Part shown: piece after piece, positions 5,169-15,478 of the stretch
How the letters are laid out: each line of letters opens with the position of its first letter
Position numbering within the stretch: the first letter of the stretch is position 1
NCBI RefSeq assembly: GCF_003334815.1
Contig: NZ_QOWO01000055.1
DNA: 15,478 bases
Strand: one strand, 5' to 3'
From: Escherichia coli
GTDB lineage: Bacteria; Pseudomonadota; Gammaproteobacteria; Enterobacterales; Enterobacteriaceae
The notes under the pieces: generated by a model
What the model saw: only the letters and a program-made list of their open reading frames with translations
Told to the model about the DNA's origin: nothing
Databases searched by the model: none
Translations under genes and position numbers: made by a program

Positions 5169-5244
5169 TGGCTCCTCTGACTGGACTCGAACCAGTGACA
5201 TACGGATTAACAGTCCGCCGTTCTACCGACTGAACTACAGAGGA
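5169..5244 (-). tRNA. asnV: tRNA-Asn (anticodon GUU)
   Basis: Reverse complement is TCCTCTGTAGTTCAGTCGGTAGAACGGCGGACTGTTAATCCGTATGTCACTGGTTCGAGTCCAGTCAGAGGAGCCA, 76 nt with encoded CCA and anticodon loop CTGTTAA. Gene name assigned by synteny (between nac and erfK in K-12). Confidence 0.96.
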
Positions 5245-7576: not shown

Positions 7577-7652
7577 TGGCTCCTCTGACTGGACTCGAAC
7601 CAGTGACATACGGATTAACAGTCCGCCGTTCTACCGACTGAACTACAGAGGA
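7577..7652 (-). tRNA. asnU: tRNA-Asn (anticodon GUU)
   Basis: Identical 76-nt sequence to the other two tRNA-Asn copies (reverse complement of 7577-7652). Name by synteny (between cbl and yeeO). Confidence 0.96.
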
Positions 7653-9400: not shown

Positions 9401-9476
9401 TCCTCTGTAGTTCAGTCGGTAGAACGGCGGACTGTTAATCCGTATGTCACTGGTTCGAGTCCAGTCAGAGGAGCCA
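9401..9476 (+). tRNA. asnW: tRNA-Asn (anticodon GUU)
   Basis: TCCTCTGTAGTTCAGTCGGTAGAACGGCGGACTGTTAATCCGTATGTCACTGGTTCGAGTCCAGTCAGAGGAGCCA. Name by synteny (between yeeO and yeeN). Confidence 0.96.
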
Positions 9477-12543: not shown

Positions 12544-13860
12544 TCAAGCGCGTTGACTGTCTTTCATCAACAAAGCGGTCATTGCGGAAATCAGGCATCC
12601 AGCCAGCAAATAAATGGCGACGCTATGCCAGTTCCCGGCAAAGTAAGTGATGAGTGCAGCGGCAATAAAAGGTGTAAATCCACCGCCAACCACACTGGCA
12701 ACCTGATAACCGACTCCAGCGCCACTATAGCGATAACTGGCACCAAACATTTCGGTAAACATCGGTTGTTGCACACACACCACCATGTCATGCGCAATGT
12801 TTGCCAGCATTATGGAGAAGAAAACTATCCAGAAAATAGATTGTGCTTCAAGCGCCATAAAGAAAGGAAATGCGCTCAACGTTCCGATTAACGCACCTGT
12901 GATATAAACCCTACGGCGACCAAAACGATCGGCAAGCCAGGCAAAACAGGGAATTGTCAGGCAGCTTAATCCACCTACCAGCAAACCAATATTAAGGAAA
13001 AGTTCGCGCGGTAGCCCCATATTCTGGGTTGAATAATTAAGTGCAAAGGCAGTAACGATGTACATCGTCAGCAATTCGCACAGTCGTAGCGCAATAATCT
13101 TCAGGAAAGCACCGGGATGTCGTAACAGCGCTTCGATAACCGGGATGCGTTTTTTCGCGGCAGCTTGATAATGTTGCTGTTGTTCAAATTCCGCGGACTC
13201 TTCCATGCCATTGCGCACCCACAATGCTCCCAGTACCAGTACGATGCTAAACAGGAAAGGAATGCGCCAGCCCCAGCTTAAAAACTGTTCGTCAGTCGTC
13301 ATCATACTGATCAATGAAACCAGTCCGGTTGAAAGCAGTAAACCTACACCGTAGCCAACTTGTACACCGCTACTGTAAAAGGCTTTTTTATTTTTCGGTG
13401 CACTTTCAACGGAAAGCAACGCCGCGCCTCCCCATTCGCCGCCGACGGCAAATCCCTGAATGGCACGCAGTGTCACCAGCAAAATAGGTGCCCACCACCC
13501 AATGGTCGAGAATGAAGGAAGAATACCAATCAAGGCTGTCGCGATGCCCATCATCCAGACGGTCAGCATTAACATGCGCTTACGTCCCAGTCGGTCGCCA
13601 AAGTGACCGAAAATGACACCGCCGAGCGGACGGAAAAGGAATCCGACGCCAAAGGTAGCAAATGCGGCGAGCGTTCCCATCGCCGGGCTTACTTGCGGGA
13701 AAAACTCGCGATTAAACACCAGTGCGGCGGTGATGCCATAGAGTAAAAAATCATACCAGTCGACGACGGCACCAGCGAAGCTGCCTAACGCAGCTCGTCG
13801 GGCGCGACTTAACGAAAGCGTCCCTTCATCGGGACGAGTGGAGATGAGCGTGGAGTCCAT
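12544..13860 (-). CDS. shiA: Shikimate transporter ShiA (major facilitator superfamily)
   Basis: 438-aa polytopic membrane ORF (MDSTLISTRPDEGTLSLSRARRAALGSFAGAVVDWYDFLLYG...), MFS signature GHFGDRLGRKR; length matches E. coli ShiA. Confidence 0.93.
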   Translation of the reverse strand: MDSTLISTRPDEGTLSLSRARRAALGSFAGAVVDWYDFLLYGITAALVFNREFFPQVSPAMGTLAAFATFGVGFLFRPLGGVIFGHFGDRLGRKRMLMLTVWMMGIATALIGILPSFSTIGWWAPILLVTLRAIQGFAVGGEWGGAALLSVESAPKNKKAFYSSGVQVGYGVGLLLSTGLVSLISMMTTDEQFLSWGWRIPFLFSIVLVLGALWVRNGMEESAEFEQQQHYQAAAKKRIPVIEALLRHPGAFLKIIALRLCELLTMYIVTAFALNYSTQNMGLPRELFLNIGLLVGGLSCLTIPCFAWLADRFGRRRVYITGALIGTLSAFPFFMALEAQSIFWIVFFSIMLANIAHDMVVCVQQPMFTEMFGASYRYSGAGVGYQVASVVGGGFTPFIAAALITYFAGNWHSVAIYLLAGCLISAMTALLMKDSQRA

Positions 13861-14174
13861 AATGATCCTGTTTGTACTGTCTTTTTATAATTAGTATGGA
13901 AAAGGTAACTCACATTGCCGTCGATCTATAAACGAACCTTATGAGACTACCTCGACAGAGCGCATCTGCAAATGATTTTATGGCTGATTAGCGGCAACAT
14001 GAAAAATTCGATGGAAGATGAAAGCGCAGGAGTTGCTGGTGTTGTTTAAGGATTAAGCAGAGGACCCACAGGTTAGAGATATGAAACATAAAAGTCCGCA
14101 TATGCACAAAATGGCACCCTGATGAGTCTGATAGACTGCATTGCATTATAACCAGTAGGGAGGCGAGGTTAGGT

Positions 14175-14777
14175 ATGTTTTTAGCATCATTGTTGAGACG
14201 TATTGCATTTAGTTACTACGATTATAAAGCTTATAATTTCAATATTGAAAAAACAGACTTTGTTGTCATCCATATTCCCGATCAGATTGGCGATGCTATG
14301 GCCATCTTTCCTGTTATTCGGGCGCTTGAATTGCATAAAATTAAGCATCTATTAATTGTTACGTCGACAATTAATTTAGAAGTCTTTAATGCGCTCAAAC
14401 TTGAACTGACTAAATTAACATTAGTTACAATGACTATGCAGGATCACGCAACATTAAAAGAAATAAAAAATTTAGCGAAGAACATAACACTGCAATACGG
14501 TACGCCGGATCTTTGTATAGAGGCGATGCGTAAAAAGAACCTGAAAACGATGATATTTATCAGTCAGTTGAAAGCAAAAACGAATTTTCAGGTTGTTGGT
14601 ATAACCATGAATTGCTTCTCCCCTTTGTGCAAGAACGCGTCCCGTATGGATCAGAAACTCCGGGCTCCCGTACCTATGACATGGGCATTTATGATGCGTG
14701 AGGCGGGTTTTCCAGCAGTCAGGCCAATATATGAATTGAATCGCCACGGGTTTAACAGACACCTCAGAGTCATTTAA
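14175..14777 (+). pseudogene. yeeL: yeeL-like putative glycosyltransferase (family 9 heptosyltransferase-like N-terminal region), 3'-truncated remnant
   Basis: The 200-aa ORF has an N-terminal pattern resembling GT9 heptosyltransferases (VVIHIPDQIGDAMAIFPVIRALE) but is far shorter than the ~320-350 aa typical for the family. AT-rich body until about 14600, then a GC-richer tail that runs into the IS3-family element. Position divergent from shiA matches K-12 yeeL, which is a pseudogene there. Confidence 0.5.
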
Positions 14778-15050
14778 GATGACTTAAAGAGAGGTGCCCA
14801 TGAGTGGTAAGCGTTATCCCGAAGAGTTTAAAATTGAAGCAGTCAAACAGGTTGTTGATCGCGGTTATTCTGTTGCCAGCGTTGCAACACGTCTCGATAT
14901 CACCACCCACAGCCTTTACTCCTGGATAAAGAAGTACGGTCCGGATTCTTCCACTAATAAAGAACAGTCAGATGCTCAGGCCGAGATCCGCCGTCTCCAG
15001 AAAGAGCTGAAGCGGGTTACCGACGAACGGGACATATTAAAAAAAGCCGT
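14732..15050 (+). mobile_element. IS3-family insertion sequence (possibly IS600-like), 5' portion; left boundary approximate; interrupted at 15050/15051 by IS30
   Basis: Contains an IS3-family OrfA. Upstream sequence GGGTTTAACAGACACC carries the GGACAC-like motif common in IS3-family left ends. Left end placed 60-70 bp upstream of the orfA ATG by analogy; not verified. Confidence 0.55.
14800..15050 (+). pseudogene. IS3-family transposase OrfA (HTH plus leucine-zipper protein), C-terminally truncated by the IS30 insertion
   Basis: MSGKRYPEEFKIEAVKQVVDRGYSVASVATRLDITTHSLYSWIKKYGPDSSTNKEQSDAQAEIRRLQKELKRVTDERDILKKA, then reads into the IS30 end. Programmed -1 frameshift-type heptamer A_AAA_AAA at 15039-15045. 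The ORF-track start at GTG 14794 is 2 codons upstream. Confidence 0.75.
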
Positions 15051-15478
15051 TGTAGATTCAATCTGTCAATGCAACACCCCTTTCAATTATCTCTTTCGGT
15101 GTTTTGAACTTCAGTGTCTTTCTCGGTCTGTTGTTTAGCTGAGCAGCAACCAGATCTAGTTCATGTTGAGTATATTGGGCAAGACATGTCTTTTTAGGAA
15201 AGTACTGCCGAATTAGCCCATTTGTGTTCTCATTTGTTCCCCGCTGCCAAGGACTCTGAGGATCGCAGAAGTAAACTTTAACGCCGGTGCTGACAGTAAA
15301 TTCTAGATGTCTGGCCAGTTCCATTCCTCTGTCCCATGTCAGTGATTTTCTGAGTTCTGACGGTAAACTCAGGAATTTGTCGGTAAGAGCCTGATTTACT
15401 GAGACAGAATCTTTGCCCCTGAGTCTAAGGATGATCGTATAACGTGATTTTCGGTCTACAAGTGTGGCTATATGAGAG
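15051..15478 (-). mobile_element. IS30 insertion sequence, one end (terminal inverted repeat begins TGTAGATTCAAT at 15051); continues beyond the window
   Basis: The terminal sequence TGTAGATTCAATCTGTCAATGCAAC matches the remembered IS30 inverted repeat, and the adjacent ORF on the minus strand is the IS30 transposase C-terminus. Confidence 0.8.
15058..15478 (-). CDS. insI: IS30 transposase (DDE, IS30 family), C-terminal 139 codons; N-terminus lies outside the window
   Basis: The minus-strand frame is open from the window edge: SHIATLVDRKSRYTIILRLRGKDSVSVNQALTDKFLSLPSELRKSLTWDRGMELARHLEFTVSTGVKVYFCDPQSPWQRGTNENTNGLIRQYFPKKTCLAQYTQHELDLVAAQLNNRPRKTLKFKTPKEIIERGVALTD. It contains the IS30-family signature PWQRG-NENTNGL-RQYFPK. 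Confidence 0.85.
   Translation of the reverse strand, partial: SHIATLVDRKSRYTIILRLRGKDSVSVNQALTDKFLSLPSELRKSLTWDRGMELARHLEFTVSTGVKVYFCDPQSPWQRGTNENTNGLIRQYFPKKTCLAQYTQHELDLVAAQLNNRPRKTLKFKTPKEIIERGVALTD

Follow-up and report, generated by a model that had tools for sequence, protein, structure and literature searches.

Enzymes of the GT-B fold require both of their domains, the C-terminal one of which binds the nucleotide sugar. The described systems closest to the locus considered here are the GT-B glycosyltransferases WaaC (HepI) and WaaF (HepII) of CAZy family GT9, and the Escherichia coli gene yeeL itself. ST131 carries an intact yeeL encoding a 350-aa protein (WP_000480517.1), and the protein cluster of intact YeeL holds 10,923 member sequences. 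The MG1655 counterpart is the pseudogene yeeL (b4497), which lies between yeeJ and shiA. In the literature yeeL is used as a neutral integration site, and no functional or biochemical study of YeeL was found there. A TraDIS screen of ST131 associated yeeL disruption with enhanced motility, with insertions enriched among the hyper-motile mutants (PMC5425062).

The DNA analysed here (the window) is a stretch of 15,478 nucleotides of the E. coli chromosome, which matches strain N18-04097 (NZ_CP047277.1) from end to end, apart from 8 mismatches and a single gap (99.94% identity). In the annotation of the matching genome, the gene order is cobUST-ldtA-tRNA-Asn-nac-cbl-tRNA-Asn-yeeO-tRNA-Asn-yeeN-amn-shiA, followed by a partial 'glycosyltransferase family 9 protein', a partial transposase and IS30. 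The shikimate transporter gene shiA (12544–13860, minus strand, a 438-aa ORF), which is annotated in N18-04097, a K-12-like strain, ST131 and MG1655, serves as the anchor of the yeeL locus, being its conserved neighbour in divergent orientation, and the arrangement is identical in MG1655, the K-12-like strain and ST131. A 200-aa ORF beginning with ATG (14175–14777, plus strand), whose translation includes IPDQIGDAMAIFPVIRALE, is placed divergently beside shiA in the window, as in the YeeL orthologue group. The shiA–yeeL intergenic region (13861–14174) is intact and colinear with the intact and K-12 alleles, and direct reading of the sequence shows Shine–Dalgarno-like AGGGAGG (14157–14163) and GAGG (14165–14168) ahead of the ATG at 14175. 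Scanning 13800–14850 for promoters and terminators gave none beyond shuffle expectation (three promoter-like consensus sites versus 3.1 in shuffles), and Rfam gave no ncRNA in or near the yeeL region, its matches in the window being three tRNA genes elsewhere. These genes (5172–5244 and 7580–7652 on the minus strand, 9401–9473 on the plus strand; tRNA-Asn in the matching genome) are surrounded by repeats of ~85–120 bp, in both direct and inverted orientation. Another IS-scarred spot of the window is found just upstream of cobU, where the matching-genome annotation places a fragment of an IS4-family transposase and a cobalamin biosynthesis gene truncated at the N terminus (~1249–1607; L008 1262–1620).

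The extent of yeeL in the window was defined by aligning its DNA with the K-12 and intact ST131 alleles; this three-way alignment runs without gaps from ahead of the start codon as far as position 14738, beyond which the window diverges completely. The aligned part of the gene (14175–14738, plus strand, 564 bp) comprises codons 1–188 of 350; codon 188 (TTG) ends at 14738, and the original reading frame is kept, with no indels. Colinearity with the 350-aa protein is therefore limited to these codons, over which the full-length homologues of about 350–370 aa in E. albertii, Pseudocitrobacter, Erwinia and Rosenbergiella also align, in frame 1. Matches to the 940 bases from 13861 to 14800 were obtained in 5376 of the 5426 complete E. 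coli genomes, almost all of which lose homology at query base 878, corresponding to window position 14738. The AT-rich gene yeeL occurs in nearly all E. coli. The remainder of the ORF (14739–14777, plus strand) is a tail of 12 codons (NRHGFNRHLRVI) and a TAA stop, encoded within the left inverted repeat of an IS. An earlier note, made from the sequence alone, had named the gene yeeL and read it as what is left of a GT9-like glycosyltransferase gene that breaks off directly ahead of an IS. Both points agree with the alignment: the window yeeL is 98.5% identical to K-12-type sequence and 100% identical to N18-04097, b4497 occupies the same place in MG1655, and the IS abuts the gene at 14737/14738. 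We conclude that 14175–14738 is almost certainly the 5′ part of yeeL, cut at the IS junction, and that the GC step within it, described below, is the edge of an island intrinsic to the gene and unrelated to the truncation. The locus is already known as a pseudogene locus, and the RefSeq annotation of the remnant ('glycosyltransferase family 9 protein, incomplete, missing C-terminus') is correct. A 96-aa ORF on the minus strand (14472–14762) overlaps the GC-rich island, and with its GTG start inside the IS inverted repeat it is chimeric and probably spurious.

To place the remnant within its family, the intact protein was compared with profile and structure databases. The only Pfam GT9 match of intact YeeL is to PF01075 (Glyco_transf_9) at residues 232–321 (E-value 7e-7), a region deleted in the window, and its match to the NCBIfam heptosyltransferase I model, over residues 206–347, scored 39 bits versus a cut-off of 185 bits. 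A YeeL family profile matched WaaC chains in the PDB weakly, in the C-terminal region, and hhalign to WaaC and WaaF agreed. The likeness to WaaC and WaaF by TIGR02193, PF01075 and hhalign is confined to residues ~206–347, which are absent from the window. A profile link between the N-terminal domain and WaaC, WaaF or PDB chains was rejected, as the C-terminal region alone aligns, and the N-terminal resemblance thus rests on the fold and a short motif. The AlphaFold2 model of intact YeeL, built on 20 family members, has a mean pLDDT of 84.6 and consists of two Rossmann-like domains. Its best Foldseek matches in the PDB are 3TOV, WaaF (1PSW) and WaaC (2GT1/2H1H), with TM scores of 0.64–0.72 over the full length at 12–15% identity, so that a GT-B fold nearest to the solved GT9 structures is found, by model, for the intact orthologue only.

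The short motif is an N-terminal strand followed by Gly-Asp, which reads VVIHIPDQIGDAMAIFP in YeeL, VLIVKTSSMGDVLHTLP in WaaC and ILVIGPSWVGDMMM in WaaF, a pattern match only. YeeL and WaaC have GD-x5-P in common, and WaaF is without the Pro. The earlier note had called the N-terminal motif GT9-like, and it does parallel WaaC and WaaF; G39, D40 and P46 are invariant among the 20 family members. The Asp of this motif presumably corresponds to Asp13 of WaaC, the proposed catalytic residue. Erwinia and Rosenbergiella retain the top conserved block of the family, ASRMDQxxRAPVPMTWxxMREAGFP, and S156, D159, Q160, R163–V166, W170, M174, R175 and A177–P180 do not vary among 20 sequences with identities as low as 52%. 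The top conserved stretch, residues 141–170 (window 14595–14684), contains the invariant C147 and C152; C114 is also invariant. Residues 141–164 are the worst modelled in the AlphaFold2 prediction (pLDDT < 50). This segment may be a family-specific acceptor-binding or metal-binding loop. From the modelled fold, intact YeeL is predicted to be a divergent GT9-like (heptosyltransferase-like) GT-B enzyme that catalyses sugar transfer.

What the remnant still encodes is the N-terminal Rossmann-like domain, which includes the GD motif, and the conserved loop and helix region. In the model of intact YeeL, the strands and helices of the first domain, the only one covered by the window, extend to about residue 176 and the second domain starts near residue 192, shortly after the point at which the remnant ends. 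The remnant ORF has no Pfam match at E ≤ 0.001, PF01075 included, and no significant heptosyltransferase or glycosyltransferase match in NCBIfam. Judging from how GT-B enzymes work, the remnant, without the C-terminal nucleotide-sugar-binding domain, could not be an active transferase even if it were expressed, and would therefore be a pseudogene. A point against this view is that the 188 codons are open and the ribosome-binding site is intact, so that expression of a truncated protein is conceivable. The ORF might even be a functioning gene, from which the N-terminal domain with its 12-residue IS tail is made, for example as an acceptor-binding or decoy protein; it stays open for 200 codons behind a native upstream region and Shine–Dalgarno sequence, and 49 genomes from varied hosts still carry the allele. 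However, this persistence amounts to clonal inheritance, and the half that is gone is the donor-binding one, in a fold that needs both. The intact short family, aligning end to end with the ORF, that the earlier note had allowed for did not emerge: no protein family of the remnant's length was found, and every short match is a partial or otherwise disrupted copy. In addition, yeeL has been inactivated independently in other lineages (a nonsense codon at position 234 in K-12, partial copies in Shigella), which suggests a dispensable gene. We consider it extremely unlikely that the truncated ORF is a functioning gene, and treat it as a pseudogene.

The first 425 bp of the remnant (14175–14599) have a GC content of 0.339, compared to 0.506 in shiA, in keeping with the AT-richness remarked on in the earlier note. 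The break that it had placed near 14600 is also real, and GC is not uniform across the ORF: a single-break scan of 14175–14738 put the best break at 14614 (GC 0.335 on the left and 0.52 on the right, z 3.77), a contrast reached in 5 of 2000 shuffles, and the same step is visible in a 100-nt GC profile. The note had taken the break for an internal deletion or frameshift in yeeL, or for a fragment of another, GC-richer gene fused before the IS and read in a different frame, and had pointed to a protein-like run, VQERVPYGSETPGSRTYDMGIYDA, in an alternative frame. The run does exist, within a stop-free stretch of 55 codons in frame 3. Its protein-like status does not stand, however, since its length is at chance level: frame 2 offers a comparable stop-free run of 52 codons, and the ORF listing contains no frame 3 ORF of ≥30 aa with a start codon near the GC step. 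The frame 3 run is open by chance. Through 14738 the DNA follows the intact alleles colinearly and without a gap, which argues against a deletion or frameshift at the step, and it is frame 1 that continues the family motif through the GC-richer part and encodes the invariant residues from S156 to P180. Substitutions relative to the ST131 allele in this stretch also favour frame 1, with a ratio of synonymous to non-synonymous changes of 5:5, compared to 2:8 and 1:10 in the other frames. Based on the substitution pattern and the family alignment, a frameshift or fused foreign fragment is rejected. The GC-richer island is moreover present in intact genes and in homologues of 66–72% identity, and the probability that a lesion or fusion lies at ~14600 is close to nil. 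The sole lesion is the IS junction at 14737/14738.

The GC-richer island starts in the window at the change-point (14614–14738, plus strand), and this part encodes the top conserved motif ASRMDQKLRAPVPMTWAFMMREAGFP. In the intact gene the island spans about codons 121–220, and the window ends partway through it: GC in the ST131 gene goes from about 0.3–0.4 to 0.47–0.54 at positions of about 390–660, and back to 0.32–0.39. A bump in both GC and GC3 is also seen in the E. albertii homologue (66% identity) and in a 72% variant, both of which are at other loci. The GC step is an old feature intrinsic to yeeL and independent of the truncation. Across the step, second codon positions go from a GC of 0.27 to one of 0.43, and amino-acid content therefore explains part of it; the island is partly accounted for by the Ala/Arg/Pro/Gly-rich composition of the top conserved segment. 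Conservation as the sole cause was rejected, because per-codon conservation is correlated with total GC (rho 0.23, p 1e-5) but not significantly with GC3. GC3, which is free of protein constraint, climbs to 0.50–0.67 at codons ~101–180 versus about 0.2–0.35 elsewhere, and the equally conserved block at codons 271–320 keeps a GC3 of 0.17–0.33, so protein constraint is not the full explanation.

The GC3 values, together with the even, host-like GC of the Erwinia and Rosenbergiella homologues, are what would be expected if the island were a relic of ancient intragenic recombination, that is, of a mosaic origin of yeeL, and not a by-product of protein constraint. Set against this origin are the per-codon correlation between total GC and conservation, and the occurrence of the bump in three Escherichia-type versions that differ at 66–72% protein identity and occupy different loci. 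We regard a mosaic origin as rather unlikely; since the bump is common to divergent versions at different loci, any such event would be very old and irrelevant to the remnant. What resembles a fusion point in the composition is an ancient feature of the gene, and there is no hidden second gene or frameshift to explain.

The left part of the IS3-family element that truncates yeeL occupies 14737–15050 (plus strand), with the left inverted repeat at 14737–14774 (TGAATCGCC...) and a truncated orfA, annotated as transposase, at 14800–15048, of which the first 83 codons are left ahead of IS30. The TG at 14737–14738 is common to yeeL and the left end of the IS. In the matching genome the element is bounded by 38-nt imperfect inverted repeats (TGAATCGCC.../...GGCGATTCA), whose arms (TGAATCGCCACGG... 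/ ...CCGTGGCGATTCA) are 74% complementary and have the imperfect 5′-TG...CA-3′ termini of the IS3 family. Strain 20AH011 has an intact copy of 1229 bp that shows the orfA–orfB organization with programmed –1 frameshift; its annotation reads 'IS3 family transposase, programmed frameshift'. The 3–4 bp target duplication of the family is missing: the left flank ends in ...ATGAAT and the right flank begins with GTGGCATC... (AAT versus GTG). The flanks are in fact parts of different genes, yeeL on one side and yeeJ on the other, which, with no duplication, fits a deletion or recombination between IS copies.

Beyond the right end of the IS, yeeJ, an inverse autotransporter adhesin gene, is truncated to 1833 bp and is without its C-terminal part (L001 9146–10978); this truncation and the far side of the IS lie outside the window and are inferred from N18-04097, which is 99.94% identical across it. 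Estimated against the K-12 arrangement (yeeJ length differs from strain to strain), about 6 kb is gone: the 3′ 489 bp of yeeL, the 261 bp between the two genes and some 5.2 kb of yeeJ. Given the truncated yeeJ opposite yeeL and the lack of a target-site duplication, we infer that these three segments were lost through a deletion associated with the IS or through recombination of two IS copies, and that IS30 inserted into the IS3-family element afterwards. The shortened ORF runs 12 codons into the left inverted repeat and stops. The functions of yeeL and yeeJ were lost in one event in this lineage.

IS30 lies at 15051–15478 in the window, which ends within it, and continues beyond (L001 7191–8411); its transposase is on the minus strand and is annotated 'IS30-like element IS30 family transposase', and in the matching genome 26-nt inverted repeats enclose 1221 bp. 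Compared to the intact 1229-bp copy, the host IS lacks 180 bp precisely where IS30 went in, pointing to an adjacent deletion associated with IS30. Of 5426 complete E. coli genomes, 49 carry the junction, as shown by a 101-bp probe across it. One of these, RM14721 (L009 5147–8552), has the same yeeL::IS3-family::yeeJ ends, but the IS contains a group II intron (with an ltrA reverse transcriptase/maturase) and not IS30. The yeeL–yeeJ deletion is therefore older than either secondary insertion, and is a shared event.

Examination of the genomic context of YeeL homologues in Erwinia, Rosenbergiella, E. albertii and the 72% variant revealed no conserved neighbours. A role of YeeL as a dedicated glycosyltransferase of the YeeJ adhesin, comparable to the autotransporter heptosyltransferases, was rejected, as those homologues are without an adhesin neighbour or synteny; autotransporter heptosyltransferase structures were absent from the top 50 fold matches of the YeeL model. 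A link with the MFS transporters that neighbour the gene in Erwinia, Rosenbergiella and E. coli was also dismissed as coincidence, the transporters being unrelated to each other beyond the superfamily. YeeL-type genes occur at different sites in Escherichia (L011 5001–6059, in E. albertii, and L012 5001–6059), one between tonB-like and yciA-like genes and another between an hchA-like gene and mtfA. With its differing sites and its AT-richness relative to the flanks, the YeeL-type gene behaves like a small mobile islet.

It is very unlikely, in our estimate, either that losing the 3′ half of yeeL along with most of yeeJ was adaptive or that the retained N-terminal domain is still made and binds an acceptor. 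If the loss were adaptive, a change in motility or in biofilm behaviour could follow from dropping an adhesin together with a GT9-like orphan enzyme that modifies the surface. The window adds one further route of inactivation for a gene that is dispensable in E. coli, and the yeeL::IS3-family::yeeJ junction is a clonal marker for a small lineage. Intact YeeL represents a family of conserved, GT9-like orphan enzymes that have an invariant loop of their own, and for learning the function of this family the truncated copy is of no help.

Compared to known systems, the mobile element resembles IS3-family sequences in its imperfect TG...CA terminal inverted repeats and, through the intact copy, in the orfA/orfB programmed frameshift. 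It differs from a typical member of the family in having no target-site duplication and different genes on either side, and in being broken by IS30 with 180 bp missing. The K-12 gene (b4497) is in the same shiA–yeeJ locus, with 98.5% DNA identity over the shared part and the same N-terminal 188 residues apart from 6 substitutions, and both copies are inactivated. However, K-12 yeeL keeps the full 1053 bp with one nonsense codon, at position 234 (as seen in the K-12-like genome), whereas the window gene has lost codons 189–350, along with most of yeeJ, in a deletion associated with the IS. Over residues 1–188, intact YeeL (WP_000480517.1) is colinear with the window and 92% identical to the 200-aa ORF, but it has a C-terminal Rossmann domain with the PF01075 match and a DTS/H motif region, neither of which is present in the window. 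As for WaaC and WaaF, the predicted GT-B fold of intact YeeL is nearest to 2GT1, 2H1H, 1PSW and 3TOV, the C-terminal donor-site region aligns weakly with both, and the N-terminal strand-GD-x5-P is common to YeeL and WaaC, with WaaF similar except for the Pro. In contrast to these two enzymes, to which it is 12–15% identical with a score of 39 bits against the equivalog cut-off of 185, YeeL is encoded outside the waa cluster with no conserved neighbours, and has its own conserved Cys-containing loop at residues 141–170.
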